Source of the DNA: Schaalia odontolytica
GTDB lineage: Bacteria > Actinomycetota > Actinomycetes > Actinomycetales > Actinomycetaceae
Length of the DNA stretch: 32,000 bases
Reading direction: 5' to 3'
NCBI RefSeq assembly: GCF_005696695.1
Contig: NZ_CP040006.1
Span: 690,001-722,000, forward strand
Made by a program: the position numbers and the translations under genes. Under the pieces are notes generated by a model. The model had not been told where the DNA came from, did not search any database, and saw nothing but the letters and a program-made list of their open reading frames with translations. This document shows, one piece after another, positions 1-17,263 of the stretch (position 1 is its first letter; every line of letters begins with the position of its first letter).

Positions 1-1
1 C

Positions 2-889
2 CTCCTCGGGGGCCTCGGGCCCCGGATCGTTGGGTCCAAAGACGATGTGGAAGGGCTCGTGGGTGACCCGATCCTGGGGATCTGGAATGCGCATGTAATC
101 CCCGTAGCCGCGCGTGAGCACGACGTCGTAAGCGGCCGGGATGCGCACCGTGATGTCCTCGAAGGGAACGGAGCGGGCCGGGAAGAGCTCGGCCTCGGAG
201 GCGCTCCAGCGGCGAGGATCGCGCGTCGAAAAATCACCGAAGAGGATTGAGTCGTCGGCTGCCTTCTGCGGATTCTCACGACCCTTGAGGGCGGCGCGCA
301 GCCAGCGACGGTACAGCGAGGCCTCGTTGACGCGCAGCGCCCGCATGCCCCAGTGGGCGCAGGCCATCGCCGCGGAGGCCAGCTGGCGCGCGGGCGTGGG
401 CAGACCCGTCGGCGGGTTGGGGATGGAGCGCAGGAACATGAGGCGCGCCCATAGCCAGGTGCCGCGCGACTGGGCGCGGAAGCGGCCGGGGTCGTCCGCG
501 ATCTCATCCAGGACGAACAGATCCACGCCGATCGGCATGCGGAACGAGCGGTCCTTCGCGACCTTCGAGACGAACTCCGAGCCCTTCAGGCCCAGGACGC
601 CGAAGCTGATCGGGTAGTCGGGGTGAGTGGCGGGGGAAGCGATGAAGAACTCGTCCCTGAGGAGGGCGGGAGCCTCGGCGATGAAACGTTCGTAATCCGC
701 CCGGGGCATGCACACGTCCCCGTCGTCGTCCCACGGGATGAAACCCTGGTGGCGCACAGCCCCGATCGCAGTGCCGCCGTAGGCGACGTAACGAATATCC
801 AGGAGTGTGCAGACGCGATCGATTTCGGCCAGGCATCGCTTGGTGACGCGCTGAATGGCTGCCAGGGTTGCGGGCTCTGCTGCGCTCAT
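2..889 (-). CDS. licD: LicD-family phosphocholine (CDP-alcohol) transferase, paralog 1; 3' end runs off the window
   Basis: Absent from the ORF track because no stop is reached before position 1. I translated the minus strand by hand from ATG 889..887 (GGAGA about 8 nt upstream) and got 296 sense codons with no stop: MSAAEPATLAAIQRVTKRCLAEIDRVCTLLDIRYVAYGGTAIGAVRHQGFIPWDDDGDVCMPRADYERFIAEAPALL... The YGGT.(I/L)GA.RH.GFIPWDDD.D block is the LicD signature. It is clearly paralogous to the adjacent gene. Confidence 0.8.
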   Translation of the reverse strand, partial: MSAAEPATLAAIQRVTKRCLAEIDRVCTLLDIRYVAYGGTAIGAVRHQGFIPWDDDGDVCMPRADYERFIAEAPALLRDEFFIASPATHPDYPISFGVLGLKGSEFVSKVAKDRSFRMPIGVDLFVLDEIADDPGRFRAQSRGTWLWARLMFLRSIPNPPTGLPTPARQLASAAMACAHWGMRALRVNEASLYRRWLRAALKGRENPQKAADDSILFGDFSTRDPRRWSASEAELFPARSVPFEDITVRIPAAYDVVLTRGYGDYMRIPDPQDRVTHEPFHIVFGPNDPGPEAPEE

Positions 890-920
890 CAGTTCTCCGA
901 TCGTTTCAGGGCCGTGGGGC

Positions 921-1778
921 TTACAGGCTGTCGGCGTAGGGGCCGAAGTCGATGACGGCGGCCTCGTGGTTGTAACGCTGCTCCGGGGGAGGCAGCTGCA
1001 TGTAGTCGCCGTATCCGCGGCGCAGCAGGGCGTCGTATTCGTTCTGGATCATCACCGTGATGTCCTCGAAAGGAACGTCGCGGGTGGGGAAGAACTCCTC
1101 CTCGCGCACGATCCAGTTCTGCGGGTCGCGCATCGTGAAGTCGGCGTACACGCCCGTGCCCGTGCCCTCGTATCGGCGAACCGCGCGCTCCCACCGAGCC
1201 TGCAGGCTCGCCGGCGTCGCGCGTACCGCCTTCAGGCCGAGGTGCGCGAGGGTCGTCGCCGAGAAAATCAGGGCCTTCTTCCAGGTGGGAGTGTTGATCA
1301 GGTGGGGCCGAGGCGTGCCCTGGAGGAACAGCAGGCGACCCCACAGCCACGACTGGCGCGACATCTCCTGGAAGGCCTTCTCGTCGGCCGGAATCTCATC
1401 GAGGGGCAGGATGTCCAGGAAGAAGGGCATCCGGTACTTCGAGTCCTTGTCCGCCTCGGGGATCAACAGGGTTCCCGGCATGACCATCTTCGTGAACATG
1501 AAGGGGAAATCGTCGCGCGTGCGCGTGTTATCCAGGCGGAAACGCTCATCGAGCAGGGCGGGAGCCTCGGCCAGGAAGCGCTCGTAGTCGGCGCGCGTCA
1601 TCATCACGTCGATGTCGTCATCCCACGGAATAAAGCCGCCGTGGCGGATCGCGCCGATCGCGGTGCCGCCGTAGATCGCGTAGGACACCCCGATGTGTCG
1701 GCACACCCGGTCCAGCTCGGCCAGGATCAGCGTCAGGAGCTTCTGGACCTTACGCAGGTCGGTCTCGGGTGTCGTCAT
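921..1778 (-). CDS. licD: LicD-family phosphocholine (CDP-alcohol) transferase, paralog 2
   Basis: Track ORF 921..1838. I prefer the internal ATG at 1778 (MTTPETDLRKVQKLL...) over the GTG at 1838. Motifs: YGGTAIGAIRHGGFIPWDDDIDVMMTRADYERF, and C-terminal RRGYGDYMQLPP. Lies 31 nt upstream of paralog 1. Confidence 0.85.
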   Translation of the reverse strand: MTTPETDLRKVQKLLTLILAELDRVCRHIGVSYAIYGGTAIGAIRHGGFIPWDDDIDVMMTRADYERFLAEAPALLDERFRLDNTRTRDDFPFMFTKMVMPGTLLIPEADKDSKYRMPFFLDILPLDEIPADEKAFQEMSRQSWLWGRLLFLQGTPRPHLINTPTWKKALIFSATTLAHLGLKAVRATPASLQARWERAVRRYEGTGTGVYADFTMRDPQNWIVREEEFFPTRDVPFEDITVMIQNEYDALLRRGYGDYMQLPPPEQRYNHEAAVIDFGPYADSL

Positions 1779-1840
1779 CAGTCCTCCGAATATGACAAAG
1801 CGGGTGAGCACACGTGCGCTCACCCGCCATTGTCTCACGG

Positions 1841-2809
1841 CTACTGGCCGCTGACCTTCTCCGCGCGCCTGGGAAGCAGGTCACCCCACGAGGGGGTGGC
1901 CGCCAGGACCGTGCCCACGAGGATCACGACGCAGCACACCACCTGGGTGGCCGTGGGCACCGTGCCCTGCAGGACGAGAGCGAAGATGATCGCCCAGGCC
2001 GAGTACGAGATGTTCAGGGCCATGCCGCGCGACGCGCCGATCGCCGACAACGCCTTGTAGTAGAAGAGGTACGAGGCCGTTCCCGCCAGGCCCGCCAGCG
2101 CCACGACGCCCGCCGACAGGTGAGCCAGCGAATGCAGTGTGAAGCCGAAGACTCCGGCGATGGGGGCCACGATGAACAGGTACACGACCGCCGAGGTCGT
2201 CTCGCGGATCTGGAGGGCCACCTCGTTATCCACGGCCTCGTCGCGCATGCCCCACGTGAGGATCACGGCCTCGGACCCCCAACCGATCACGCAGGCCAGC
2301 GCGCCGACCACGCCGAGGATCGCATTGCCGCCCTCGATCGGCTCCGACGTCGCCGACCAACCCGTCGCGACGATGGCCGCGAGGGCGACCAGCAGGGCCG
2401 CGATCTGGCGGGGAGCCATGCGCTCCTTCAAGAGGATGAAAGCCAGAAGGGTGCCGAGCGCCGGGTAGAATGTCGAGATGATCGCGGTCAGGCCAGGGCC
2501 GATGTTGTCGATAGCGATCAGGTAACCGCTCATGCCGATCGGGCCGCCCAGCAGAGCCGCCGCAATCACCGACTTGCCCGGGCGCGTCCGCAGCGCCGCC
2601 CAGGTGTCCTTCAGACGACCACGAACCGCCATGTACGCGAGCAGAATCACGGCGCACGCGACGTCGTGCAGGACCGCGCCGGCGAGCGCCGACTGGCCGA
2701 AGTCGGCAAATGGGATCATGGCCAGTGCGATCGCCAGCACGACCGTGTCGAGGCCCCACAGGACGCCCGAGAAGATTCCGTAACGCTTGCCTCCGTGCTG
2801 AGTTTTCAT
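1841..2809 (-). CDS. licB: DMT/EamA-family permease, LicB-like (putative choline transporter)
   Basis: 322 aa and almost entirely hydrophobic, with about 10 TM segments in two halves as in EamA/DMT carriers. ATG 2809 overlaps the stop of the upstream fusion gene (ATGA). It sits between licCA and licD, as in lic loci. Choline as substrate is inferred from context only. Confidence 0.65.
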   Translation of the reverse strand: MKTQHGGKRYGIFSGVLWGLDTVVLAIALAMIPFADFGQSALAGAVLHDVACAVILLAYMAVRGRLKDTWAALRTRPGKSVIAAALLGGPIGMSGYLIAIDNIGPGLTAIISTFYPALGTLLAFILLKERMAPRQIAALLVALAAIVATGWSATSEPIEGGNAILGVVGALACVIGWGSEAVILTWGMRDEAVDNEVALQIRETTSAVVYLFIVAPIAGVFGFTLHSLAHLSAGVVALAGLAGTASYLFYYKALSAIGASRGMALNISYSAWAIIFALVLQGTVPTATQVVCCVVILVGTVLAATPSWGDLLPRRAEKVSGQ

Positions 2810-4635
2810 GCCAGTTCACCTTCCGTGGAGATCTGAGTGCTCGAGGCGGCCTCGTAGGCTGCGAGCAGGGAATCGAGCGTGCGTGTCGCGTGCGAGTAGT
2901 AGATGTAGAGCCATTCGCCGACGTCGTCGCCTTCGGCCTCCTTGACCAGCGCCCACAGGTACCAGCACCAGCCGGCGAACACCTCGTAGGCGAAGAAGTG
3001 GCGCGCCTCGCGCTCGGAGGGGGCGTGGCCCAGGTAGTACTCCAGGGCGGCGGCCGCGCGCTCGCGGGTCATCTCCGCCGTGCACACGGTCATCGTGCCG
3101 AAGTCGGCGGCCATGTCCGACATGCCCGCGTACTCCCAGTCGATGAGGCTGATCTTTCCGTCCTTGTCCACCAGGAAGTTTGGCGGGAAGAAGTCGTTGT
3201 GCGAGGGGACTTTATCGAAGCCATCCGCGTCAGCGAAGGCCTTCAGCCGCAGGACCTTGTCGCGCAGCTCAAAGTATCCGGGCACGTCGATGGGGCCGAA
3301 GGCCTTGAGGAGGCCCTCGTAGCGCAAGCCTTCGGTGACAAAGTCGAAGGAGCGGTCCAGGATTCGGCCGGAGGTGTGCAGCGCGCGATCCATCTCCATC
3401 GCGGCCTTGAGCTCCTCGTCGCGGGTGACGTCCAGGTTGCGCACGTCGCGCACGAAGCGCGAGATCTTCCAGCCGGCCGCGGGGTCGCCCGTGAGGAAGG
3501 TGTCGTCGATGCCGAGCTCGGCGGCCAGGCGTAGGCCGGCGAACTCCGCGCTGCGGTCCACGATCTTCTCCGTGCCGATGCCCGGGTGGCGGTAGACGTA
3601 TTCGTCGTCGCCCACGGCGAAGTGGCACGACAGGTTCGTGATGCCCTGCTTGAGCGGGTAGAAGTCGCGGATGTCCGACTTCTGGCAGCCCAGGGTGGCC
3701 ACGATGTGATCGAAGACCTCGGAGTCGACGTTCTCCATGAACAGGGGGTCGAAGCTGCGCAGCTCGTCGACCGAGTCGAACTCGTGGATGACCCCGTCCG
3801 GGTAGCGGCGGATCACCATGTCGAAGGACTTGATGTGGTCCAGGTAGATGGACTCCCACAGCTTCGACACCGTCTCGGGCAGGTGGTAGACCTGTTCGAG
3901 GATCTCGCGGAACTTCGCGGAAAAGACGCGGTCGAAGTAGACGTGGCCGAGCATGACCCACGCGTCGGCTCCGCCCACGGTTGCGCCCGTGATGCGGTCG
4001 CCCGGGCCCGTCTTGATGCACCACTCGTCGGTGGGGCCCTCGACGTAGTTCGCTGAGTAGTAGGCCTTGTAGACGTAGGGCTCGAAGGGGTTGGTCGTGA
4101 AGTAGTCGTCCGAAGAGCACACGTAGGTGTTGTCGAGGCGGTCCTTCACGAGCCACAGGGACCCGTTGTTGTTGCGCGTGGAGTACTCGCGGTTGACGAT
4201 GATGTCGACGCCGTACTTGTCGGCCAGGTAGAAGAAGTATTCCTTCTTGTAGCCCACGACCAGCGTGATGTTCGTGATGCCGGCTTCGTGGAGCTGGCGG
4301 ATCTGACGCTCGACGAGGATCTCTCCGCGCACCTTGAGCGTGCCCTTGGGGCGCTCGTAGCTGATGGGAGCGAAGCGCGAGGACAGGCCCGCGGCCATGA
4401 TGACGGCGCCCGTGACGCGGTAGGGCTCGAGGGCCTCGCGGCCCGCGTCGGTGATCGCGCGCTCGTCGATGTAGCCGGCGGCCTCGCACTCGCGGGTGGC
4501 GGTGTTGACGCGCCCCAGGCTCATGCCGGTGGCCTCCGACAGGGCCCGCTGCGTGAGGGGAGAGTCGGCCTTGGCCAGTGCGTTCAGGATGTTGAATTGG
4601 GGCTCGCTGAGCGTGCCGACGTTGGTCGTGGGCAT
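2806..4635 (-). CDS. licCA: Tri-domain fusion: N-terminal winged-HTH + LicC-like CTP:phosphocholine cytidylyltransferase + LicA-like choline kinase
   Basis: 609 aa. Residues 10-60: MarR-like wHTH (LSEPQFNILNALAKADSPLTQRALSEATGMSLGRVNTATRECEAAGYI). Residues 75-300: nucleotidyltransferase (AVIMAAGLSSRFAPISYERPKGTLKVRGEILVERQI). Residues 305-585: choline/APH-type kinase with Brenner motif PSHNDFFPPNFLV and choline-kinase motif LIDWEYAGMSD. SD-like AAAGGTGA lies upstream of ATG 4635. Confidence 0.85.
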   Translation of the reverse strand: MPTTNVGTLSEPQFNILNALAKADSPLTQRALSEATGMSLGRVNTATRECEAAGYIDERAITDAGREALEPYRVTGAVIMAAGLSSRFAPISYERPKGTLKVRGEILVERQIRQLHEAGITNITLVVGYKKEYFFYLADKYGVDIIVNREYSTRNNNGSLWLVKDRLDNTYVCSSDDYFTTNPFEPYVYKAYYSANYVEGPTDEWCIKTGPGDRITGATVGGADAWVMLGHVYFDRVFSAKFREILEQVYHLPETVSKLWESIYLDHIKSFDMVIRRYPDGVIHEFDSVDELRSFDPLFMENVDSEVFDHIVATLGCQKSDIRDFYPLKQGITNLSCHFAVGDDEYVYRHPGIGTEKIVDRSAEFAGLRLAAELGIDDTFLTGDPAAGWKISRFVRDVRNLDVTRDEELKAAMEMDRALHTSGRILDRSFDFVTEGLRYEGLLKAFGPIDVPGYFELRDKVLRLKAFADADGFDKVPSHNDFFPPNFLVDKDGKISLIDWEYAGMSDMAADFGTMTVCTAEMTRERAAAALEYYLGHAPSEREARHFFAYEVFAGWCWYLWALVKEAEGDDVGEWLYIYYSHATRTLDSLLAAYEAASSTQISTEGELA

Positions 4636-4681
4636 GCGATCACCTTTCGTTCATGGAAGCCACTTGGGCGCTACATGTTCG

Positions 4682-4710
4682 AGCGTAGCACTATTGGGCG
4701 GATTTGTGAA
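4682..4710 (-). promoter_or_regulatory. Candidate sigma-70-type promoter of the lic operon (TTCACA-17 nt-TACGCT)
   Basis: Read on the minus strand in the 94-nt gap before licCA. -35 TTCACA is the complement of 4705..4710, the spacer is 17 nt, and -10 TACGCT (TAnnnT) is the complement of 4682..4687. This would give a 5'UTR of about 40 nt. Sequence match only. Confidence 0.3.
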
Positions 4711-4729
4711 CGGTTTGGGTGTGAAGTGT

Positions 4730-6283
4730 CTATCGACGAGGCTCGGGCGCCTTTTCGGGCGAGCGTTGCCACAAGAAAACGGCCAGGCCAATTGCAAGCG
4801 CGCCAGCGAGAGCGCCAAGGATCCACACGGCCATCGGTCCGATCGGAGCCGTTGGCCACCACCACTCGTTCCCCGCGCTCAGGTTCCGCGTCGACAGGTC
4901 GATGGGGTAGCCGTGCTGCGTGCGTCCGAACGCGTAGCGCTCGATGACGAGGTAGAGAGCCCGGGCGTTGGTGAGGGTCCATATCGCCGCCACGAGCCCC
5001 GTGCCTACGCGCCCGGCGATGCTCGTGGGGAGGTGGAATGCCTCGCTGCCCACGCGCCGCCCCTCATCGTTCGCGCGTGCGGGGGAGGGGGCCAGGAGCA
5101 TGAGCAGGAATACCGCGAAGAGCGGCAGCATGTAGCGCGGTTGGTAGGTGAGGACGTTGTTGAAGTGTCCGCGCAGGCCAATCACCACGGGAACACCCGT
5201 GATTGCACCGGCCACCGTGATCGCCGACAGAGCCTTGCGCCAGGACAGCGAACGCAGCGACCAACACAGAACCGCGACGACCACGATGGAGGCGCCGTAG
5301 GACACGGTGCCCTGGTAGGACACGTCGTTCCACCCCGGTCCCAGCAGGTGCCCGACGAAGCCGCGCAGGTAGTTGGGTAGTGAGGACACGTTGAGCCACG
5401 CGATGTGTTTGAGAGAGTATTCCGCCAGTTCGTTACCCGAACCCAGGTGCGAGGCAGCCACGTTCGTGCGAGCCATGACCCAGATGCCCACGACAGAGGC
5501 GACGCATGCCAGGGTTGCCTCGGGAATGATGCGCTTGGTCAGCGGCACCGCGAAGGCCAGGGCGACAGTGACGACGAAGAGGAAGAAGGCGCTGTCGCCG
5601 CGGGACGTGCATGCCAAGACCGCGCCGGCTAGGGCGCAGGCGATCAGGCCCACCCGGCGTTGCCCCACCGAACGGGTGGCGGCCAGTAGCCCAGCGGCAA
5701 ACGCAAACGTGCCCGTCATCGCCCACGACGAGGGGTTCATGCCGGCAACGAAATAGAAGCCCATCGGCAGCCACGCGACCGTCACGGCGACGCTGATCGC
5801 GCGCTTCAGCCCCGAATCCGCCAGAGCGATGATCGCCCCGATCAGGCCGATCGCCAGCAGCGTGTTCACCGTGCGCAGCGCGAGGACCGCGTGGCTCGTC
5901 GAGCGCTGCACGAAGAGGTGGGCGAACTGGTAGTAGCCCCACGGGTAGTTTCCGTCGTCCCAGCGCAGGGTCGGCGCCAGCTCCTCGTCCGAGGCATTGA
6001 GGGCGCACAGAGCGGAATTGTCATGGTCGAAGGCGTAGCAGGTGACGTACTCCTTGGCCAGCGACTGCGGCACCATGACGGCCTTCTCGCCGTCCTTGGT
6101 GGAAATCTGGCAGCCCGTCTTGTCCACCGGGGGAGGGCACCACATGGAGCCGACGTGGAAGTCCTCGTCCGGGGAGGAGCCGACCGGGGACGCCACGACC
6201 CACGCCAGCGACGCCGCAATGACCGCGGCAACGAGGATGAGCACCGCGACGAGCGTGCGGCGCTGCGGGGCGGACGTGGACAT
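4730..6283 (-). CDS. Polytopic membrane protein, DUF2142-like (putative GT-C-fold glycosyltransferase), paralog 1
   Basis: Track ORF 4730..6487 trimmed to ATG 6283 (MSTSAPQRRTLVAVLILVAAV...), which has GAAGGAGG 7 nt upstream. The 68 upstream codons are P/R/S-rich and overlap the GT4 gene end. There are more than 10 hydrophobic segments. PDEDFH follows TM1 directly, and the first outside loop has four Cys. Paralog of 20228..21793. Confidence 0.75.
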   Translation of the reverse strand: MSTSAPQRRTLVAVLILVAAVIAASLAWVVASPVGSSPDEDFHVGSMWCPPPVDKTGCQISTKDGEKAVMVPQSLAKEYVTCYAFDHDNSALCALNASDEELAPTLRWDDGNYPWGYYQFAHLFVQRSTSHAVLALRTVNTLLAIGLIGAIIALADSGLKRAISVAVTVAWLPMGFYFVAGMNPSSWAMTGTFAFAAGLLAATRSVGQRRVGLIACALAGAVLACTSRGDSAFFLFVVTVALAFAVPLTKRIIPEATLACVASVVGIWVMARTNVAASHLGSGNELAEYSLKHIAWLNVSSLPNYLRGFVGHLLGPGWNDVSYQGTVSYGASIVVVAVLCWSLRSLSWRKALSAITVAGAITGVPVVIGLRGHFNNVLTYQPRYMLPLFAVFLLMLLAPSPARANDEGRRVGSEAFHLPTSIAGRVGTGLVAAIWTLTNARALYLVIERYAFGRTQHGYPIDLSTRNLSAGNEWWWPTAPIGPMAVWILGALAGALAIGLAVFLWQRSPEKAPEPRR

Positions 6284-6311
6284 GCGGCGGCCTCCTTCGG
6301 GCGCGGTCGAC

Positions 6312-7475
6312 TCAGAAATGGGCGGCGGCGCGGAACGCCTCGATGTGGACGGAAGCGGCGCGGGCCCACGTGAACTCGTCGGCGCGCGGAATCGCAGCAG
6401 CCCCCAGGGCCTCGCGGCGAGCCGGGTCGTCCAGCAGCTCAGTGAGGGCCGAGGCGATCGAGTCGGGGTCGATGTCGCAGTAGGCAACGGCGTCGCCGCC
6501 GACCTCCGGCAGAGAGGTCAGGCGGGTCGTCAGTGTCGCGGCACCGCAGCTCATCGCCTCCAGGACCGGCAGGCCGAAGCCCTCCGCGATCGAGGGATAG
6601 GCCAAAATAACGCAGCCTGAGAGGAAACCGGGCAGGTCCTCGAGGGGCAGGTAACCGGGGCGCAGGACCGTCAGGTGCTCAGGCACCGAGGCCAGGGCCG
6701 GGTCGATGTCCTCGTCCCACCCCTTGCCGCCGGCCAATACGAGGGCCGGGGGATTCGGGCGATCCGAGACGGCCTTCACCCAGCCACGCACCAGGTTCGG
6801 CACGTTCTTGCGGGGCTCCAGCGTGCCCAGGAAGCCGATGTAGTCGCGGCCCTCCAAGCCCAGCGAGGCCTTGACGCGCTCGCGCTCGGCGTCCGAGACC
6901 GGGTGGAAGATCGAGCGATCCACGCCGTGGTAGGCGACGTAGAACTGCGAGGGGTCTCCGCCCGCGTACTTGATGGTCTCGTCGCGCGTGGCCAGAGAGG
7001 GCACCACGAGGGCGTCCGCGCGGCGAATCGCGCGGCGAATTGCTGCCGTGAAGAAACGCTGCTTGAGGCGCGAATGAGCCTGTGGGTGCGAGAAGAACGT
7101 CGCGTCGTGCAGCGTGATAACGACCGGAACGCCCGGGAACTGCGGAGACGTGTAGTGCGGGGAGTGCAGGACGTCGGGACGGACCTTGCGGATCAGCTTG
7201 GGCAGGCCCGTCTGCTCCCACGCCATGCGCGCGGGGCGGGACTCGAAGCGCTGCGAAATTGGGATGATGCGGGCCGAAGGCAGGCGCGTCGCGAAGTGCT
7301 CGGCGTCGCGCTCCTGGACCGCCATCGTCAGGTCCACGCCCTGCTCGACCAGCTCCGGCACCAGGTCGTCCACGTAGCGGCCGACGCCGCCCAGGTCTGC
7401 GGGGATCGCGGTGCCGTCCAGCAGGACGCGGATCGGATGCGAGTGAGAAACGAAGTGGGCCACGATCATCCCCAT
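6312..7475 (-). CDS. GT4-family glycosyltransferase (RgpA/rhamnosyl- or mannosyltransferase-like)
   Basis: Track ORF 6312..8159 trimmed to MGMIVAHFVSHSHPIRVLLDGTAIPADLGGVGRYV (ATG 7475 or 7469). GT4 C-terminal signature EGFGLPVLEAMSCGAATLTT. The upstream 228 codons are antisense to the neighbouring GT4 gene and are R/G/D/V-rich. Confidence 0.85.
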   Translation of the reverse strand: MGMIVAHFVSHSHPIRVLLDGTAIPADLGGVGRYVDDLVPELVEQGVDLTMAVQERDAEHFATRLPSARIIPISQRFESRPARMAWEQTGLPKLIRKVRPDVLHSPHYTSPQFPGVPVVITLHDATFFSHPQAHSRLKQRFFTAAIRRAIRRADALVVPSLATRDETIKYAGGDPSQFYVAYHGVDRSIFHPVSDAERERVKASLGLEGRDYIGFLGTLEPRKNVPNLVRGWVKAVSDRPNPPALVLAGGKGWDEDIDPALASVPEHLTVLRPGYLPLEDLPGFLSGCVILAYPSIAEGFGLPVLEAMSCGAATLTTRLTSLPEVGGDAVAYCDIDPDSIASALTELLDDPARREALGAAAIPRADEFTWARAASVHIEAFRAAAHF

Positions 7476-7574
7476 TGGGTCGGGAGCAACAACTATTCCC
7501 CTTATCGTATGCCATTTTGCGCTCGCGGATACTTTTGTTACCGCCCCCGCGCGCCCGTGAACTACCCTGGATGT

Positions 7575-8690
7575 ATGAGCGTCAACGTTGGAATGGTCGT
7601 CGAGCAAATGTGGCAGCCGGTGCCCGGAGGATCGGGCCGGTACATCATCGAGGTCGCCGCCCGTCTGGCAGACCAGGGCGTGCGTGCTATCGGTATCGCC
7701 GCACGGCGCGGTGCGGGCGAGCCCACACCGAACGAGGTGGGCCTGACCATCCCCGTGCTTAACTCGGCGCTGCCTCGCCGCGCCCTGTACGCGGCGTGGG
7801 ACCGACTGGGTACCCCCAGCGTGGATCGGATGCTCGGCGTCGGTTCGGGTGGGGGAGCGGATGTCGTGCACGCGACCACCTGGGCGATCCCGCCGACCTC
7901 GCGCCCCCTGGCCGTCACCGTCCACGACGTCGCCTTCCTGCGCGACCCCGACCACTTCACGACCCACGGGTCGGCCTACTTCCACCGCGCCCTCGAGATC
8001 ACGAGGAAGCGTGCAGACGCGATCATCGTGCCCTCGCAGGCCACCGCCGACGACTGTGTCGAAGCGGGCTTGGACGCCTCGCGCATCACCGTCATCCCGC
8101 ACGGCCTGAGCCACACTCCCGTCACCGATGCGCAGGTGGAGGAGTTCCGCTCCCGCCACGGCCTCGAACGCCCCTACGTCCTGTGGGTCGGCACCCGTGA
8201 GCCCCGCAAGAACCTGCCCACCCTGCTCGCGGCCTACGAGCAGCTACAGGGCACCGACCTCGACCTCGTCCTCGTGGGGCCCGCCGGATGGGGAAGCGAC
8301 CCCACCGACGCGCCGCTTCCCGCCGGGCGCGTTCACGTCCTCGGACGTCTCGACGACACTGACCTGGCCTGCGCGTACGCGGGTGCGCGCGTCTTCACCT
8401 TCCCTTCGATCTGGGAGGGCTTCGGCCTGCCCGTCCTCGAGGCCATGGCGCACGGAACGCCCGTCGTGACCAGCGCGGACACGTGCATGGCGGAGATTAC
8501 GGGCGCCGACGCCGGTCTCCTCGTGCCGGCCACCGACGCCTCGGCCCTGGCCGAAGCCCTTGAGGCAGCTGCCGGCAGCGAGCACGACCGGCTCGCCGCC
8601 GCCGGTATCGAGCGCGCCCGCGACTACACGTGGGAGGCCTCCGCCGCCGCTCACGCCGCCATCTACGCGTCCCTGGCAGGTGACCGATGA
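7575..8690 (+). CDS. GT4-family glycosyltransferase
   Basis: Track ORF 6675..8690 trimmed to ATG 7575 (MSVNVGMVVEQMWQPVPGGSGRYIIEVAARL; ATG 7593 is an alternative). Signature EGFGLPVLEAMAHGTPVVTS. Divergent from 6312..7475 across a 99-nt gap. Confidence 0.85.
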   Translation: MSVNVGMVVEQMWQPVPGGSGRYIIEVAARLADQGVRAIGIAARRGAGEPTPNEVGLTIPVLNSALPRRALYAAWDRLGTPSVDRMLGVGSGGGADVVHATTWAIPPTSRPLAVTVHDVAFLRDPDHFTTHGSAYFHRALEITRKRADAIIVPSQATADDCVEAGLDASRITVIPHGLSHTPVTDAQVEEFRSRHGLERPYVLWVGTREPRKNLPTLLAAYEQLQGTDLDLVLVGPAGWGSDPTDAPLPAGRVHVLGRLDDTDLACAYAGARVFTFPSIWEGFGLPVLEAMAHGTPVVTSADTCMAEITGADAGLLVPATDASALAEALEAAAGSEHDRLAAAGIERARDYTWEASAAAHAAIYASLAGDR

Positions 8691-9679
8691 GGGCGCGCAG
8701 CGCGAGGGTCATCCTCGTCAACTGGAAGAACGCGCCGCTCACCCTGCGCGCCGCCCACTCCATCGCCCCGCAGATGGGGGAGGGGGACCACCTCGTCATC
8801 GTCGACAATGGATCCGACGACGACTCGCTCATCGTCCTGCGCGAGGGACTCGACGAGCTGCGCGGCGCCGCCGATCCCGCGCGCGTCTCCCTCGTCAACG
8901 CCGGGACGAACGACGGCTTCGGCGCCGGCGTCATGGCCGGAGCGGCCGGCCTGAGCGAAGATGCCGTCGTCCTACTCAACAACGACGCGACCGTGCGCGA
9001 CGGATTCCTCGACGCGCTCCTGGAGCCCCTGAGCGGGACCGTGGGAGCCACGACGGCCCTCATCTTGCTGACCGGCACCTGGCGTCCCTCCGCCCCCTCC
9101 GACACGGAGTTCCTCGTCGCCCGCGACGGCAGCCGCTGGACGCGCGTCGCCGACGGAGACAGCGGCGGGCAGGTCCTCATCAACTCCACCGGCAACGAGG
9201 TCGATCACGCAGGCAACGGCTACGACCGCTCCTGGCTGGACCCCGCCAACTCCCCGCTGCCCGCCCCCGAGGTCTTCGGCCTGTGCGGCGGCGCCTGCGC
9301 GATCGACGCCGACGCGTGGCGAGCTGTCGGGGGAGTGCGCACCGACCTGTTCATGTACTACGAGGACACCGACCTGTCCTACAAGCTGCGTGAGGCCGGG
9401 TACGAGGTGCGCTTCGTCGCCGGTGCCGTCGTCGACCATGAGCACGCGGCCTCCTCGGGCACGTCCTCGCCCATGTTCCTGCGGGTCAACGCGCGCAACC
9501 GCATCATCGTCGCCGCCCAGCACGCCCCCTGGGGCGTCGTCGCACGTGCCATCGCCCGCTCGATTGCTCGGGCGGTGCGCTCGGGTGGACGGGGACCGGT
9601 CGCCCGCGGAGTCCTCCAGGGGCTCCTCGCCCTGCCCCGCGCGCTGCGCCACCGCACCGCGCTGCCTCCCCGACGATAG
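8687..9679 (+). CDS. GT2-family glycosyltransferase (WbbL/rhamnosyltransferase-like)
   Basis: 330 aa. ATG overlaps the upstream stop (ATGA). Motifs: VILVNWKN, IVDNGSDDDS, NAGTNDGFGAGV, LLNNDATV, YYEDTDLSYKLREAGY. Confidence 0.8.
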   Translation: MRARSARVILVNWKNAPLTLRAAHSIAPQMGEGDHLVIVDNGSDDDSLIVLREGLDELRGAADPARVSLVNAGTNDGFGAGVMAGAAGLSEDAVVLLNNDATVRDGFLDALLEPLSGTVGATTALILLTGTWRPSAPSDTEFLVARDGSRWTRVADGDSGGQVLINSTGNEVDHAGNGYDRSWLDPANSPLPAPEVFGLCGGACAIDADAWRAVGGVRTDLFMYYEDTDLSYKLREAGYEVRFVAGAVVDHEHAASSGTSSPMFLRVNARNRIIVAAQHAPWGVVARAIARSIARAVRSGGRGPVARGVLQGLLALPRALRHRTALPPRR

Positions 9680-9685
9680 GGGAGT

Positions 9686-9705
9686 CGGCCTCGTGGACGA
9701 GGCCG
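9686..9705 (+). terminator. GC-rich hairpin after the GT2 gene (8-bp stem, 4-nt loop, no U-tract)
   Basis: CGGCCTCG-TGGA-CGAGGCCG, 7 nt after the stop at 9679. No T-run follows, so it may attenuate or stabilise mRNA rather than terminate fully. Confidence 0.3.
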
Positions 9706-9764
9706 GGGCCGATGGGTGCGTCACGGCACACAACGCGGGGCGGAGCTGCGTAGCGCCTACGCCT

Positions 9765-9773
9765 TGATAGACT
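9765..9773 (+). promoter_or_regulatory. Extended -10 promoter element TGATAGACT; predicts a leaderless mRNA starting at ATG 9781
   Basis: TGnTAnnnT match. The last base of the hexamer is 7 nt before the A of ATG 9781. No Shine-Dalgarno sequence is present in 9774..9780. Confidence 0.4.
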
Positions 9774-9780
9774 GACTGAC

Positions 9781-10632
9781 ATGGTGAAGACTGTCCTCGT
9801 TACCGGAGCCGGTGGCTACATTGGCCGCCACATTGTTCACGCCCTGCTGGAGCGCGGCCTCGACGTCAGCGTCGTCGACTTCCGCCTCGACGGTGTCGAC
9901 GAGCGCGCGCGCCGCATCGACACCCAGATTTTCAGCGGAGACGCTGACATCTACGACCAGCTCGGACGCCCGGACGTGGTCCTGCACCTCGCGTGGCGCG
10001 ACGGCTTTGTGCACAACTCGCCGGCCCACATCGAGGACCTGCCCGCGCACTACCGCTTCATCGAGAACCTCCTCGAGGGCGGCTGCACCCACCTGGCCGT
10101 CATGGGTTCCATGCACGAGGTCGGCTACTGGGAGGGCGCCATCGACGAAAACTCCCCGTGCAACCCCGCCTCGCTGTACGGCATCTCCAAGAACGCGCTG
10201 CGACAGATCACGTCGCTGCTGACCGCCAAGCACGGCGCGACCATGCAGTGGCTGCGCGGCTACTACATCGTCGGCGACGACGCGCACGGCTCCTCGATCT
10301 TCTCCAAGCTCCTGGCCGCCGCCCAGGAAGGCAAGAAGACCTTCCCCTTCACCACGGGCAAGAACCTCTACGACTTCATCTCCATCCAGGGACTGGCCTA
10401 CCAGATCGCGGCCGCCGTCTCCCAGGACGAGGTCACCGGCATCATCAACATCTGCAGCGGCGAGCCGATGAGCCTCGCCGACCGCGTCGAGGCCTACATC
10501 CGCGAGAACAACCTGGACATCGCCCTCGAGTACGGGGCCTTCCCGGATCGTCCCTACGATTCGCCCGGAGTGTGGGGCGACGCCACGAAGATCCGCCAGA
10601 TCCTGGCCACCGTCGACGGCACGGGGGAGTAA
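9781..10632 (+). CDS. NAD(P)-dependent epimerase/dehydratase-family SDR (probable nucleotide-6-deoxyhexose 4-reductase/epimerase)
   Basis: 283 aa. Rossmann motif VLVTGAGGYIGRHIV and catalytic YxxxK as LYGISKNAL. Its size and position in a rhamnose-type cluster resemble RmlD/Tll-type reductases. Exact specificity cannot be assigned. Confidence 0.75.
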   Translation: MVKTVLVTGAGGYIGRHIVHALLERGLDVSVVDFRLDGVDERARRIDTQIFSGDADIYDQLGRPDVVLHLAWRDGFVHNSPAHIEDLPAHYRFIENLLEGGCTHLAVMGSMHEVGYWEGAIDENSPCNPASLYGISKNALRQITSLLTAKHGATMQWLRGYYIVGDDAHGSSIFSKLLAAAQEGKKTFPFTTGKNLYDFISIQGLAYQIAAAVSQDEVTGIINICSGEPMSLADRVEAYIRENNLDIALEYGAFPDRPYDSPGVWGDATKIRQILATVDGTGE

Positions 10633-10636
10633 GGCC

Positions 10637-12499
10637 GTGAAGCGCGCCGGTATTTTCCTGTTCTTTGATCCCCAGGGCCTCGTCGATGACTACATCGTGG
10701 AGTGCCTGACCTCGCTGCGCGAGTACCTTGATGAGATCCTCGTCGTTTCCAACTCTCCTCTGGACGACACTGCTCGTGAGCGCCTCCTCAAGGGCGCCAC
10801 CGAGGTCTTCGAGCGCGAAAACACCGGCTTCGACGTGGGCGGCTACCGCGACGGCATCGCCCGCTTCGGCTGGGACCGCCTCGGCCAGATCGACGAGCTG
10901 ATCCTCTTCAACTACACCTTCTTCGCACCCGTCAACCCGTGGAAGAACCTCTTCGACCGCGTGGACGCCGCCGGAGCTGTGGACTTCTGGGGCATCACCG
11001 AACACGACGAGGTGCGCCCCCACCCCTTCCTGGCAGCCACCCGCATGCCGCGCCACATCCAGTCCCACTGGATCGCCGTGCGCAACCCGCTGCTCAGCTC
11101 CCCGGACTTCCGCAAGTACTGGGACGAGATGCCCCCGATCCGCTCCTACAACGACTCGATCCAGTGGCACGAGTCGCGCTTCACGGAGTACTTCGGCAAC
11201 CTCGGCTACACGCACGTCGTGGCCTACCCGCGCGAGGACTACCCGTCGCGCAACCCCGTCTTCGACAACGCCTCGATGCTGCTCGCGGACGGCTGCCCGA
11301 TCCTCAAGCGCCGCAACCTCTTCCACGACCCGCTCTACCTGGACCGCCACGCGATCATCGGCGCGGACATGCTGGAGCTGGCGGAAAAGGCCGGCTACGA
11401 CACCGACCTGATCCTCACGAACCTCGCGCGCACCTCGCGTCCGCGTGACCTCGTGACCAACGCGGGCCTGACGACGGTCATCTCCCCGCGCGCCGACCAG
11501 GCCACCCTGGACGCCGCCGCCTCCCTGAAGGTCCTCGCGGTCGCACACATCTTCTACGCCGACATGGCCGACGAGATCCTCGACCGCCTGAGCGTCCTGC
11601 CCGACGGCTACCACCTGGTGGCCACGACCTCGAACGAGGAGAACAAGGCCCTTATCGAGGCACGCGCCCAGGAACGGGGCGTGGACGCCGACGTGCGCGT
11701 CGTGTCCTCCAACCGCGGCCGCGACATCGGCGCGTTCCTGGTGGATTGTGGCGACGTGCTCACCTCCGGCGAGTACGACATCGTCGTGAAGATCCACTCC
11801 AAGAAGTCCGTCCAGGACGACTACAACGCCGCCCAGCTTTTCAAGGAGCACCTCTACGACAACCTGCTGGCTTCCTCCGATCACGTGGCCGGCATCCTCG
11901 CCGAGTTCGCCGCCCACCCGGGCCTGGGCATGGCGATCGCACCCATGCCGCACATGGGCTACCCGACGATGGGCCACGCGTGGTTCGCGAACCGCGCCCC
12001 CGCCCGCGAGTTCGCCAAGAAGGTCGGCATCACCGTCCCCTTCGACGACCACCAGCCGCTGGCCCCCTACGGCTCCATGTTCATCGCGCGCCCGGAGGCC
12101 CTGTCCCTGCTGACCGGCGCGGGCCTCGTCCCCGAGGACTTCCCGGAAGAAGGCGGCTACAAGGACGGCTCCCTGGCGCACGTCATCGAGCGCCTCCTGT
12201 CCTACGCGGTCCTGTCGCGCGGCTACTACGTGCGCCCCGTCATGACCCCGAAGTGGGCGGGCGTGTACTACGGCTACCTCGAGTACAAGCTGGCGGCGAC
12301 CTCGTCGATGATGCCCGCCTTCGCGATCGACCAGGTGCCCTTCCTGAAGGCGCGCATGGGCGCGGTCCCGAACCTGCTGGGCGCCGTCAAGACCAACATC
12401 ATGGTGCGCACGCCCGGACTGGGGAACGCGCTCAAGCCGGCGTACCGCGCGGCCCGCGGAGTCGCCCACAAGATCCGATCCATGAAGGGTGAGCGATGA
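10637..12499 (+). CDS. Rhamnan synthesis protein F (RgpF) family glycosyltransferase
   Basis: 620 aa with a GTG start 4 nt after the SDR stop. The N-terminal block AGIFLFFDPQGLVDDYIVECL...ERENTGFDVGGYRDGI...DFWGIT and the duplicated domain organisation match my recollection of the RgpF family. Confidence 0.75.
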   Translation: MKRAGIFLFFDPQGLVDDYIVECLTSLREYLDEILVVSNSPLDDTARERLLKGATEVFERENTGFDVGGYRDGIARFGWDRLGQIDELILFNYTFFAPVNPWKNLFDRVDAAGAVDFWGITEHDEVRPHPFLAATRMPRHIQSHWIAVRNPLLSSPDFRKYWDEMPPIRSYNDSIQWHESRFTEYFGNLGYTHVVAYPREDYPSRNPVFDNASMLLADGCPILKRRNLFHDPLYLDRHAIIGADMLELAEKAGYDTDLILTNLARTSRPRDLVTNAGLTTVISPRADQATLDAAASLKVLAVAHIFYADMADEILDRLSVLPDGYHLVATTSNEENKALIEARAQERGVDADVRVVSSNRGRDIGAFLVDCGDVLTSGEYDIVVKIHSKKSVQDDYNAAQLFKEHLYDNLLASSDHVAGILAEFAAHPGLGMAIAPMPHMGYPTMGHAWFANRAPAREFAKKVGITVPFDDHQPLAPYGSMFIARPEALSLLTGAGLVPEDFPEEGGYKDGSLAHVIERLLSYAVLSRGYYVRPVMTPKWAGVYYGYLEYKLAATSSMMPAFAIDQVPFLKARMGAVPNLLGAVKTNIMVRTPGLGNALKPAYRAARGVAHKIRSMKGER

Positions 12500-13767
12500 G
12501 CCTGGCCTCCACGATCCGGGCTGCGGCCCCTCACACGCCCCAGTCCGTCGCGCAGGCATTCAACTCCAGGTCCAACTCGATCGGGTTTTTGCGCTGGCTG
12601 ATGGCCTTCATGGTCATCTTCTCGCATGCCGGACCGATCGCCGGATTCTACGGCGGCGAGGACCTGGGCGTGCAGATCTCCAAGGAGCAGTCCATCGGTG
12701 GCGTCGCCGTCGCAGGATTCTTCTTTTTCTCGGGCTTCCTGATCACGCGCTCGCGCATGGGACGCGCGACGATCTGGCGCTACATGTGGCGCCGCGTCCT
12801 GCGAATTTTCCCGGCCTTCTGGGCGGCCCTGCTCTTCACGGTCGGCATCCTCGCGCCGATCGCGTACTGGCACACGTTCCACAACATCTCCGGATACCTG
12901 CACCCGGCCACCGAGTCCCCACTCACGTACTTTGTGAACAACATGTGGCTGAACCTGGGCCAGCGCAATATCGCCGGCATGGGCGAGAACCTGCCGTACT
13001 ACATCTTGCACGGCGCCCGTGACTGGAACGGCTCGGCCTGGACACTCATCTACGAGTTCAAGGCCTACATCCTGGTGGCGATCCTCGGCCTGTTCGGAGC
13101 GCTCGCGAACCGCAAGGTCGGCGGCGCCTTCGCCCTCGTGCTGATCGCCCTCAACGCTCTGCAGTGGATGGGCGCGGGTCAGGTCTCCAACGTCAACTAC
13201 CTGCTGCGCGACCCCTACATGCTGATGTTCATGGGCCCCTTCGCCTTCGGCATGCTGTTCACGCTCTACGGCGACAAGATCCCCATGGACTCGCGCCTGG
13301 CGTGGGGCGGCCTCATCTTCGGAGTGCTCTCCTACGCGTCGGGCGGCTGGAACATCGTCGGCCAGTACGGTTTCCTGTACTTCCTCATGTACCTGGCGAT
13401 TCGCCTGCCCCTGCAGAACTGGGAGAAGCACGGCGACCTGTCCTACGGCATCTACATCTACGCATGGCCGATCATGGCGTTCGCCGCCTACTTCCACCTG
13501 CAGGATCGTGGCTGGATCGCCTACCACCTGACGGTTGTCGTGACCGTGCACATCCTGGCCTACCTGTCGTGGCACCTCATCGAGAAGCCTGCGATGAGCC
13601 TGAAGAACTATCTGCCGCGCTGGATGGATAAGCTCATTGAGCACTTCCGTCCCACGTACGAGGCCGTGGCCCGCCGCATCGTCACGCCGGCCCTGTCCTC
13701 GACCAGGATTGCGACGGTCATGGAGGCCGAAGAGGCGGCCGCACGCAGCGAGGAGGAGACCAAGTGA
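12496..13767 (+). CDS. Acyltransferase-3 (AT3) family integral membrane O-acyltransferase
   Basis: 423 aa. ATGA overlap with the RgpF-family gene. N-terminal AT3 signature NSIGFLRWLMAFMVIFSHAG, about 10 TM segments, and a charged cytoplasmic tail. Confidence 0.8.
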   Translation: MSLASTIRAAAPHTPQSVAQAFNSRSNSIGFLRWLMAFMVIFSHAGPIAGFYGGEDLGVQISKEQSIGGVAVAGFFFFSGFLITRSRMGRATIWRYMWRRVLRIFPAFWAALLFTVGILAPIAYWHTFHNISGYLHPATESPLTYFVNNMWLNLGQRNIAGMGENLPYYILHGARDWNGSAWTLIYEFKAYILVAILGLFGALANRKVGGAFALVLIALNALQWMGAGQVSNVNYLLRDPYMLMFMGPFAFGMLFTLYGDKIPMDSRLAWGGLIFGVLSYASGGWNIVGQYGFLYFLMYLAIRLPLQNWEKHGDLSYGIYIYAWPIMAFAAYFHLQDRGWIAYHLTVVVTVHILAYLSWHLIEKPAMSLKNYLPRWMDKLIEHFRPTYEAVARRIVTPALSSTRIATVMEAEEAAARSEEETK

Positions 13768-15068
13768 GCGAGAAGAAGGCCGCCGGCCAGTTCAAGGAAT
13801 CCGAGTCCGGTCTGCGCGACGTCTCCTTTGACGAGGGGGTTCCCGCCGGCTCATGGAAGCGCCGCCTCCACTACGTGCCCCTCGCCGTTCTCCTTGCGGG
13901 CGCGTGTGCGGCCACCGGCGTGGGCACCTGGTACAAGGTCACCCACCCCGCTCCTCAGCCAGCTGCGGCACCCGCTGCCCAGGCCTCGTCCTTCGCGCGC
14001 ACCACGCCCCAGTCCCTGCCCGAGGTCTGCGCCCCCACCCCGCGCGCCGACGTGGGCCCGTGGACGCCCGGCGTGGCCGGCACCGCGGGCTACCTGCCCA
14101 CGGACGCCGCCCAGGCCTCGTTCGAGCAGTCCATGACCGGCGTGACCACGTATGTTCAGGGCCGCGACGGCTACCTGTTCCTCTCCGACGTCTTCAACGC
14201 GAACTTCTCCCAGGCGCTGGGCCGCGTGCGCCCCACCCCCGAGCAGGTGAGCGCGTGGGACCGCTACATGAGCGGCATCGAGACCGCCGCGAGCGAGCAG
14301 GGCGCGACCGCGCTGTTTGTGCCCGCCCCGGCCACGTGGGACGTCTACTCCGACAAGCTGCCCCAGTGGGCCGACCCGCTGATGGGCACGACCTCCCTGG
14401 ATCTCATGCGCTCGGCGCTGCCCGCCCACGCGTGGGTGGACGTGCGCGAGGGCCTGCGCGAGGCCCGCGAGGGGAGCGAGGCACCGCTGTACTCGGCGGT
14501 CAACCCCCACTGGTCGCCCTACGCCGCGCACGTCGCGTGGAACCAGACGCTGTCCTGCCTGGCCGCGGTCAACCCGCAGCTTGAGGGCCTGCCCTCCCTG
14601 ACGCCGTCCGGCGTGAGCGGCGTGGACGCCCCCAACGAGTACGAGGCCCTGGGAGCCCCCGCCCAGGCGGGGCCGTGGGCGGTCCCCACATACGAGCAGG
14701 ACCCGGGCAGCGTTCACCTCCTGCAGCTGGAGAGCCGCGACGATCTGGCCGACACCGCCGCGCGCCTGGCCGAGGTGACGGGCGCCCCCGAGGTGTCCCT
14801 GGCCAGCCCCGTCGACTTCCAGAACAAGCCGGCGCTCACCTACAACCCGAACGGACGCGGCACCGCGCTCATCGTGCGTGACTCCCAGGGCAACAACCTG
14901 GGACCCGACGTGGCCGCGACCTTCGAGTACACGATCCAGGTCGGCCACGCCCTCGACTCCGAGCAGCCGACGGACGTCGCCGCCCTCATCGAGGCCTACA
15001 AGCCCAGCGTCGTGATCGTGGAGTTCACGCAGCGCTACCTCGCGCTCACGCCGGCCGCAGGCAAGTAG
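13764..15068 (+). CDS. Membrane-anchored extracytoplasmic AlgJ/AlgX-like (SGNH-like) O-acetyltransferase partner
   Basis: 434 aa. GTG start overlaps the AT3 stop (GTGA), with AGGAGGAG upstream. One N-terminal TM segment (YVPLAVLLAGACAATGVGTWY). Motifs resembling AlgJ/AlgX: GRDGYLFLSD, VPAPATWDVYSDKLP, NPHWSPYAA (canonical D.HW) and LIVRDSQGNNL (canonical GDSF). Confidence 0.55.
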   Translation: MSEKKAAGQFKESESGLRDVSFDEGVPAGSWKRRLHYVPLAVLLAGACAATGVGTWYKVTHPAPQPAAAPAAQASSFARTTPQSLPEVCAPTPRADVGPWTPGVAGTAGYLPTDAAQASFEQSMTGVTTYVQGRDGYLFLSDVFNANFSQALGRVRPTPEQVSAWDRYMSGIETAASEQGATALFVPAPATWDVYSDKLPQWADPLMGTTSLDLMRSALPAHAWVDVREGLREAREGSEAPLYSAVNPHWSPYAAHVAWNQTLSCLAAVNPQLEGLPSLTPSGVSGVDAPNEYEALGAPAQAGPWAVPTYEQDPGSVHLLQLESRDDLADTAARLAEVTGAPEVSLASPVDFQNKPALTYNPNGRGTALIVRDSQGNNLGPDVAATFEYTIQVGHALDSEQPTDVAALIEAYKPSVVIVEFTQRYLALTPAAGK

Positions 15069-15096
15069 AATAGATTTCCTGACCACGACAGAAGCG

Positions 15097-17243: not shown

Positions 17244-17263
17244 CGGACGCGTCAGCGTTCGAG

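Follow-up and report, generated by a model that had tools for sequence, protein, structure and literature searches.

Four adjacent minus-strand genes at the start of the DNA analysed here, a stretch of 32,000 nucleotides (nt) of Schaalia odontolytica (contig NZ_CP040006.1, positions 690,001 to 722,000; hereafter the window), can with good confidence be predicted to form a pathway for decorating a surface glycan of strain XH001 with phosphocholine (P-Cho). The annotation of this module (licCA, licB, licD-1 and licD-2) is correct but not new: it is a member of the Lic-1 family, common in related bacteria. Two of its features seem to be undescribed, namely a winged-helix domain fused to the enzyme LicCA and accompanied by a conserved operator-like site, and a tight genomic linkage to proteins with choline-binding repeats across Coriobacteriia. 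Four features of the locus come in addition to the first-pass annotation of this DNA: the LicCA winged helix, the continuation of the operon past the window edge, a gene for a choline-binding hydrolase, and the operator-like inverted repeat upstream of licCA. Over its first 14,635 bases, the window matches contig LLVT01000002.1 (L001 below; assembly GCA_001462375.1) with 100% identity, and the LicCA protein is unchanged on that contig; the accession LLVT00000000 denotes the genome of Actinomyces (now Schaalia) odontolytica XH001, which is host to the Saccharibacteria epibiont TM7x (PMC6166536).

Gene organization of the module

The gene licCA (2806-4635, minus strand, as are the other three) starts with an ATG preceded by a GAAAGGTGA ribosome-binding site and codes for a protein of 609 amino acids (aa). 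Its open reading frame (ORF), motifs, Pfam and PDB matches, AlphaFold model and Foldseek neighbours define three domains: an N-terminal MarR-type winged helix (residues 9-72; 4420-4611), a LicC-type CTP (cytidine triphosphate):phosphocholine cytidylyltransferase (residues 73-299; 3739-4419) and a LicA-type choline kinase (residues 313-589; 2869-3699). Overlapping licCA by 4 nt, licB (1841-2809) encodes a 322-aa choline permease of the drug/metabolite transporter (DMT)/EamA type. After 62 nt follows licD-1 (921-1778), whose product is a LicD-family phosphotransferase of 285 aa when counted from an ATG that a GGAGG ribosome-binding site precedes (a GTG at 1838 would give the longest ORF), and after a further 31 nt the paralog licD-2 (2-889), which runs out of the window after 296 of its 299 codons and is visible at full length on L001. 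This layout of four co-directional genes joined by an overlap of 4 nt or by gaps of 62 nt or less had been proposed in the first-pass annotation, and the ORF coordinates agree with it. The motifs named there for the 609-aa fusion are also in place, VIMAAGLSSRF (nucleotidyltransferase) from residue 78 and the kinase motifs PSHNDFFPPNFLV at 477 and LIDWEYAGMSD at 497, and both LicD paralogs, 46% identical to each other, carry the DxD-containing motif YGGTAIGA.RH.GFIPWDDD.D. Likewise, the five Pfam families put forward for a check all matched far beyond chance: LicD (PF04991; E = 1e-37 for LicD-1 and 4.5e-31 for LicD-2), EamA (E = 7e-18 for the permease), NTP_transf_3 (E = 3.6e-9), APH (E = 7e-13) and Choline_kinase, the last three in LicCA.

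In NCBIfam, neither the fusion nor the permease nor the LicD genes gave a match near any equivalog cut-off. Tandem repeats that could give phase variation were looked for in window positions 1-8000, with none of note, and a scan for consensus promoters and terminators gave nothing above chance.

Choline as the substrate

The closest solved structures for both enzymatic domains of LicCA and for the permease are the pneumococcal Lic proteins. In a sequence search of the PDB, the cytidylyltransferase domain aligned with the whole length of pneumococcal LicC (1jyk, E = 6e-37), the kinase domain with pneumococcal LicA (4r77, E = 7e-27, followed by a choline/ethanolamine kinase family protein), and the permease, from end to end, with pneumococcal LicB (7b0k, E = 2e-34). 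An AlphaFold model of LicCA built with 24 sequences (pLDDT, the model's own confidence measure, 76) and searched against the PDB with Foldseek placed choline-bound LicA (TM-score 0.82) and LicC (TM-score 0.81) on top. Behind these came choline and ethanolamine kinases of Mesorhizobium, Plasmodium, Cryptosporidium and human, with a few N-acetylhexosamine 1-kinases among them, and the first aminoglycoside phosphotransferase appeared at rank 42.

The residues that contact choline point in the same direction. In the structure of LicB, the trimethylammonium group is held in a box formed by W17, Y109, W167, Y233 and Y255, the hydroxyl group is bound by Y236 and N252, and H43, E170 and R191 couple transport to protons (PMC8890701). 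All ten residues, that is, the seven of the choline box and the three for proton coupling, are identical in the window protein as aligned to 7b0k. In the case of LicA, the choline cage consists of Y197, W251, W254, Y268 and V178, with hydroxyl contacts from T29 and D176 (PMC4364537). The window domain, aligned to 4r77, keeps Y197, W251, W254, T29 and D176, together with N181, D194 and E196, and replaces Y268 with W and V178 with F, so that the cage is conserved or more aromatic. The catalytic residues of LicA are conserved as well, and the domain has the protein-kinase-like fold, Brenner motif and choline-kinase motif of this enzyme. The LicC domain in turn keeps W136, W191 and D107 in the alignment to 1jyk. 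The assignment of LicA, LicB and LicC made at the outset is upheld by the nearest structures, and for LicA and LicB also by the conserved cage and box.

Two observations on the enzymes speak less clearly for choline and weigh on the opposite side. In Pfam, the kinase domain scores 51 bits with APH and about 29.5-32 bits with Choline_kinase (cut-off 29), which is the reverse of what is obtained with the control, pneumococcal LicA (45 and 80 bits, respectively). The second concerns the LicC pocket, which shows the substitutions D105 to S, D192 to E, R129 to V and Y190 to L; D105 and D192 have been discussed as making room for P-Cho, as opposed to the smaller aminoethylphosphonate (PMC6697681). 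Both can be cited for the alternative that another amino alcohol, such as ethanolamine or a methylated ethanolamine, is activated and transferred in place of choline, which could also draw on the best curated NCBIfam match of the kinase, a non-choline kinase far below its cut-off, and on the reported promiscuity of pneumococcal LicB (PMC8890701). It is nevertheless unlikely in view of the fully kept LicB aromatic box, the LicA cage and the choline kinases among the nearest structures; in addition, many genomes encode proteins with choline-binding repeats close to the module, and related Actinomyces react with TEPC-15, an antibody against P-Cho (PMC10434233). A low probability is retained for it. 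The choline reading had originally been made to depend on the kinase not scoring best to non-choline APH families; the Pfam ranking formally places it there, whereas the nearest structures and the binding residues favour a choline kinase. By profile, the window enzyme appears as a divergent choline kinase, and its structural neighbours and binding residues are taken to outweigh the Pfam ranking. The NCBIfam match just mentioned, the guanitoxin kinase GntI, reached 77 bits against a cut-off of 357 and was judged uninformative. In the proposed pathway, choline would enter through LicB, as its conserved binding residues suggest, the LicA domain would phosphorylate it, and the LicC domain would turn P-Cho and CTP into cytidine diphosphate (CDP)-choline, as homology and fold suggest for both enzymatic steps.

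A winged helix fused to LicCA and a conserved inverted repeat

In front of the two enzymatic domains, residues 9-72 of LicCA match the Pfam models HTH_24 (E = 7e-10) and MarR_2 (E = 1.8e-8), and the segment is modelled with pLDDT ~90 in a helix-helix-helix-hairpin-helix topology. An exhaustive profile-free search for LicCA (cluster representatives at 50% identity, E <= 1e-30) returned 503 cluster representatives, many of which cover query residues 9-590 and thus all three domains; named relatives include the coriobacterium Phoenicibacter and the firmicute Erysipelothrix, and the winged helix is still present in homologues with no more than 28-35% identity. When one genome was scanned for each species, at least 540 confirmed stretches with the LicCA fusion were obtained, and the counts of loci given from here on refer to the best 80 of them, which come from Actinomyces, Schaalia, Ruaniaceae, Propioniciclava, Atopobium, Olsenella, Adlercreutzia, Eggerthellaceae, Slackia and Collinsella. 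In 70 of these 80 loci licB follows licCA.

Upstream of licCA, 41 nt from its ATG, lies a 35-bp inverted repeat, GTTCACAAATCCGCCCAATAGTGCTACGCTCGAAC (4677-4711, minus strand), a candidate operator that is conserved across loci and brackets a promoter-like TTCACA-17 nt-TACGCT. When the DNA upstream of licCA was aligned for 11 Actinomycetaceae, the GTTCA and GAAC blocks were invariant amid divergent sequence, which gives the element the form GTTCA-N24-26-YGAAC. This pattern has a single match in the 32-kb window (0.23 expected). It occurs within 260 nt upstream of licCA in 78 of the 80 loci, compared with 29 sites in the rest of this 1.5 Mb of sequence, both strands counted, or 0.0056 per 290 bp, a comparable stretch; under a looser assignment (up to 350 nt from the licCA start), 109 of 127 sites are upstream of licCA. 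Of 100 distinct sites, 74 have a spacer of 25 nt; the half-site can be extended to (T/C)GTTCA(A), and two tandem copies of the element are found in Collinsella, Atopobium fossor and others. In Olsenella and Tractidigestivibacter loci in which licB does not come after licCA (L045, L046, L051 and L052, around 11850-11930), a second copy of the repeat stands just downstream of licCA, before the next gene, which hints at a small regulon.

The site and the domain were also compared outside the high-GC actinobacteria. Two metagenomic relatives with the winged helix (40-51% GC, proteins 34-35% identical) have the site at -72/-48 and -53 (L095:1929-1988 and L096:1948-1981). Among the four distant relatives with the winged helix, the site is absent in two, one of them a gene directly behind another gene and the other coding for a very divergent Erysipelothrix protein. 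It is also absent in the two relatives that have no winged helix and at least 400 nt of upstream DNA. This control set is small, two other such fusions having too little upstream DNA or standing directly behind another gene, and it is at most suggestive of a pairing between site and domain. In one protein counted as lacking the domain (P0269, on a low-GC metagenome contig), the winged helix is present as a separate 50-aa ORF immediately upstream of the LicC-LicA gene (L087:304-456), either by a natural split or by a sequencing error.

From this co-conservation, it can be predicted that the winged helix of LicCA binds the GTTCA-N25-YGAAC site over the licCA promoter, so that the enzyme would be its own regulator. 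We give autoregulation an even chance and no more because binding is a prediction, the control set is small, and the separation of the half-sites, ~30 bp from centre to centre with the 25-nt spacer, is unusual for MarR-type dimers and speaks against it. LicCA would then be comparable to enzyme-repressors such as NadR and BirA. NadR consists of a helix-turn-helix (HTH) domain, a nucleotidyltransferase and a kinase. As in NadR and BirA, a DNA-binding domain is fused in LicCA to pathway enzymes that it might control (a nucleotidyltransferase and a kinase, as in NadR), and a conserved inverted repeat overlaps the promoter-like element of its own gene; unlike them, LicCA has a putative DNA-binding activity and half-sites ~30 bp apart, and there is no sequence relationship. 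No described HTH-LicC-LicA regulator was found in the searchable literature, which leaves out most subscription journals.

If the prediction holds, LicCA would have three functions, and the enzyme that makes CDP-choline would also control how strongly the choline-decoration genes are transcribed, with choline, P-Cho or CDP-choline as possible signals. Such a circuit for regulating P-Cho display would be undescribed and common to Actinomycetaceae, Coriobacteriia and some low-GC bacteria; in XH001, the surface that is recognised by the Saccharibacteria epibiont and by phages could thereby depend on the supply of choline. The conserved operator-like site offers a simple handle on the regulation of P-Cho decoration.

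The flippase-like protein and the acceptor glycan

The operon to which the module belongs is longer than the part inside the window. Its first gene (6312-7475, minus strand) encodes a 387-aa glycosyltransferase with Pfam GT4 domains (gene call in L001), and the second (4730-6283, minus strand), upstream of licCA, a polytopic membrane protein of the DUF2142 family (PF09913, E = 1.6e-32; 517 aa with ~10 hydrophobic segments). At the other end, the operon extends past window position 1 (L001:14643-17184) with a gene that shares 4 nt with licD-2 and encodes a polytopic membrane protein of 449 aa, and then another GT4. Facing this operon is a divergent one of rhamnan type (7575-17243, plus strand), with Pfam matches and gene calls for a GT4, a GT2, an NAD-epimerase, RgpF (E = 6e-137), an acyltransferase_3, an AlgX-like SGNH protein, an ABC-2 permease and a Wzt ATPase with a Wzt_C domain (15858-17243). 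The wall-polysaccharide context claimed in the first-pass annotation is therefore present, with the GT4 and DUF2142 genes on the strand of the module and the RgpF, ABC-2 permease and Wzt genes in the divergent operon. The genes of the divergent operon have been called rhamnose cell wall polysaccharide (Rha-CWPS) genes of XH001, and attempts to delete Rha-CWPS genes failed for most of them (PMC11623550). Judged by locus-tag spacing, the rgpF gene APY09_RS05510 of that study appears to be the RgpF gene of the window, and the GT4 past the window edge may be the "putative galactosyltransferase APY09_RS05455" targeted in it (PMC11623550).

The 449-aa protein is a candidate flippase of the Wzx/TacF type. 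Half of its aligned homologues (9 of 18) match Polysacc_synt (PF01943, the MOP/Wzx flippase family; best E = 2e-8), and its name at NCBI is "lipopolysaccharide biosynthesis protein". In 64 of the 80 loci, a homologue is encoded no more than 10 kb from licCA, and it adjoins LicD in the loci examined in detail. The position of the LicD genes beside it recalls the pneumococcal lic2 unit, which consists of tacF, licD1 and licD2 (PMC4364537). An apparent LicD-flippase fusion ORF in one locus (L023) proved, after ORFs were called again, to be an artefact of read-through at an in-frame stop.

LicD-1 and LicD-2 would move P-Cho from CDP-choline to sugars of a glycan that is lipid-linked and lies on the cytoplasmic side of the membrane, as their family and context suggest. 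The P-Cho would sit on a short side-chain unit made by the GT4 enzymes and flipped separately by the 449-aa protein, and the DUF2142 protein would join this side chain, outside the cell, to the rhamnan exported by the ABC system. A two-pathway assembly of this kind has been proposed for the rhamnose polysaccharides of S. thermophilus and L. lactis, and DUF2142 proteins occur in streptococcal rgp loci (PMC9746298). This side-chain route is favoured because of the flippase-like gene downstream of licD-2 and the DUF2142 gene upstream, in a judgement that is close to evenly balanced. A possible but less probable course is that the same pathway adds P-Cho directly to the undecaprenyl-linked rhamnan before ABC export, or to a separate teichoic-acid-like or lipid-anchored polymer. 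Direct addition would suit the cytoplasmic action of LicD, since it is there that the rhamnan is completed before Wzm/Wzt export, and also the Wzt_C domain, which in other systems serves to recognise a chain end that carries a modification; it leaves aside, however, the placement of the lic genes within an operon that holds two GT4 genes, a DUF2142 gene and the flippase-like gene, and the frequent linkage of the 449-aa homologue to licCA, which an ABC-exported polymer does not need. As for a different polymer, a gene for RgpF is found within 10 kb of licCA in only 6 of the 80 loci, so that the lic genes are not tied to rhamnan and the rhamnan link would be specific to S. odontolytica and its close relatives. 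XH001 also has a separate cluster for a glycerol-phosphate polymer elsewhere in its genome (PMC11032452), and the XH001 preprint speaks, by analogy, of decoration "of teichoic acids" (PMC11623550).

A more distant alternative is that LicCA supplies CDP-choline for membrane phosphatidylcholine and not for glycan decoration. Treponema denticola has a LicCA fusion of the same LicC-LicA architecture, and this fusion feeds phosphatidylcholine synthesis. The S. odontolytica operon, on the contrary, holds two LicD genes, glycosyltransferases and a flippase-like gene, and no CDP-alcohol phosphatidyltransferase or choline phosphotransferase; moreover, a LicD gene is found within 10 kb of licCA in 70 of the 80 loci and choline-binding proteins are co-located, which makes a role in phosphatidylcholine synthesis very improbable.

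If P-Cho is indeed present in the wall, it could serve to anchor proteins with choline-binding repeats, as the type of repeat and its genomic linkage to the module suggest. An example is encoded in the locus itself, directly after the Wzt gene (17394-19118, plus strand): a secreted protein of 574 aa with a PG_binding_1 domain, an NlpC/P60 endopeptidase domain and ~11 repeats of ~20 aa with the pattern GW...WYY...G.M.TG (Choline_bind_3, 132 bits; Choline_bind_1, 113 bits). Its repeats score 190 bits with the pneumococcal PspC model and 177 bits with the pneumococcal PspA model, compared with 62 bits for a glucan-binding repeat model. Choline-binding repeats are encoded within 10 kb of licCA in 34 of the 80 loci, and Collinsella has several such genes, including an NlpC/P60 one. 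In XH001, "choline binding proteins" have been reported to be induced by TM7x (PMC6166536).

Several points count against P-Cho decoration of the wall glycan as proposed here. The LicD paralogs have no curated equivalog match, and their sole, remote relative in the PDB is FKRP, which is a ribitol-phosphate transferase. The 449-aa protein itself gave no Pfam, NCBIfam or PDB match, alone or as an 18-sequence profile, and its AlphaFold model, made from 13 close homologues, reached a pLDDT of 42 and is unusable for a fold search. Cell-wall-binding repeats of the choline-binding type can bind other ligands. Finally, the acceptor glycan and the side-chain route are read from gene order only, P-Cho in the wall of S. 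odontolytica is likewise a prediction from its genes, and the TEPC-15 data come from other Actinomyces species only.

Comparison with known systems

The system of Streptococcus pneumoniae (lic1 and lic2) has the same four families of enzymes and transporter, and three of its proteins are the best solved-structure matches of those described here. Both organisms have two LicD paralogs beside a MOP-type flippase-like gene, although the window's flippase-like protein is too divergent for a direct match to TacF or Pfam, and a wall hydrolase of the window carries choline-binding repeats of the pneumococcal type. Unlike in S. pneumoniae, LicC and LicA are fused in the window, in that order and behind an N-terminal winged helix; the host is a high-GC actinobacterium; and the genes lie within a rhamnose-polysaccharide locus with an ABC exporter and not in a ribitol-phosphate teichoic acid locus, no tarI or tarJ having been seen.

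Another example is the lic1 operon of Haemophilus influenzae (licA-licB-licC-licD), which also unites uptake, kinase, cytidylyltransferase and transferase functions. The window differs from it in its fused enzymes, its two LicD genes and the absence of any tetranucleotide or other phase-variation repeat found, and its predicted target is a Gram-positive wall glycan, whereas that of Haemophilus is lipooligosaccharide. Treponema denticola LicCA shares the LicC-like and LicA-like domains in a single polypeptide, in contrast to the LicD and glycan genes and the added winged helix that characterise the window. With regard to the glycan, the Rgp/Rha-CWPS loci of Lactococcus and Streptococcus thermophilus likewise bring together RgpF, an ABC-2/Wzt exporter, GT2 and GT4 enzymes, DUF2142-type proteins and a Wzx-like flippase, while the actinobacterial locus is a predicted one, known here from its genes. 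No description of P-Cho as a decoration of those rhamnose polysaccharides was found in the literature searched.

Prior knowledge and significance

Surface P-Cho affects adhesion, the binding of C-reactive protein, recognition by natural antibodies and the anchoring of wall hydrolases. For decades, oral Actinomyces have been recognised as TEPC-15 reactors, with the carrier molecule not identified. In a 2023 survey, A. viscosus and A. gerencseriae reacted with TEPC-15, the carrier again not being known, and the positive Actinomyces were stated to "contain Lic-1 pathway enzymes" (PMC10434233); the genes licCA-licB-licD-flippase are present in A. gerencseriae DSM 6844 (L018). A 2024 preprint already lists a phosphocholine-decoration system in the rhamnose-polysaccharide loci of XH001 (PMC11623550). 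The first-pass annotation had been aware of no genetically characterised system of this kind in Actinomycetota, and indeed no experimental characterisation was found in the searchable literature; its premise of novelty is, however, weakened by the TEPC-15 reactors, the survey and the preprint.

XH001 can be manipulated genetically and serves as the model host for TM7x, whose attachment depends on rhamnose-containing wall glycans of the host (PMC11623550). The locus offers licCA, licD-1, licD-2, the flippase-like gene and the choline-binding hydrolase as targets, and it opens the questions of which glycan carries P-Cho and whether P-Cho influences the binding of the epibiont or of phages. Beyond XH001, P-Cho walls may be common in human-associated Actinomycetota because the module occurs widely among gut Coriobacteriia, for example in Collinsella, with several choline-binding-repeat genes adjoining it.

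Variation among relatives and additional observations

Within the close relatives of XH001, part of the locus is exchanged (L008, L009 and L011 compared with L007, L010 and L012). In these genomes licCA, licB, the upstream GT4 gene and RgpF are at least 90% identical, and the LicD, DUF2142 and flippase-like genes are replaced, cut to one LicD (54-60% identity) or absent. Such swapping of LicD, DUF2142 and flippase genes inside a conserved frame resembles a variable "serotype"-type cassette. One of these loci, L007 (NZ_JVKM01000063.1), is labelled "Xylanimonas cellulosilytica strain 352_XCEL" and has 97-99% protein identity to S. odontolytica XH001; the assembly is probably mislabelled. On a metagenome contig (L004:9088-9906), the DUF2142 gene upstream of licCA is called as 272 aa, compared with 517 in the window, which could be a disruption or an assembly error.

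Further features of the window concern its polysaccharide genes. A second pair, formed by a GT2 (347 aa) and a DUF2142 protein (521 aa), adjoins the choline-binding hydrolase gene (19188-21793, minus strand), and its arrangement is the one expected for extracytoplasmic addition of a sugar from a lipid-linked monosaccharide. In the divergent operon, the pair of acyltransferase_3 and AlgX-like SGNH genes (12496-15068, plus strand) suggests O-acetylation of the polysaccharide. Very long ORFs at 10445-12559 and 15813-19058 (minus strand) and 6675-8690 (plus strand) lie opposite real genes or extend their 5' ends, and were discarded as artefacts of the 67% G+C content. With respect to LicCA itself, several Coriobacteriia and metagenomic loci have two or three neighbouring LicC-LicA paralogs (L044, L047, L048, L057 and L058; L095:55-1803), and the Phoenicibacter version of the protein has 889 aa, with an extra C-terminal region.

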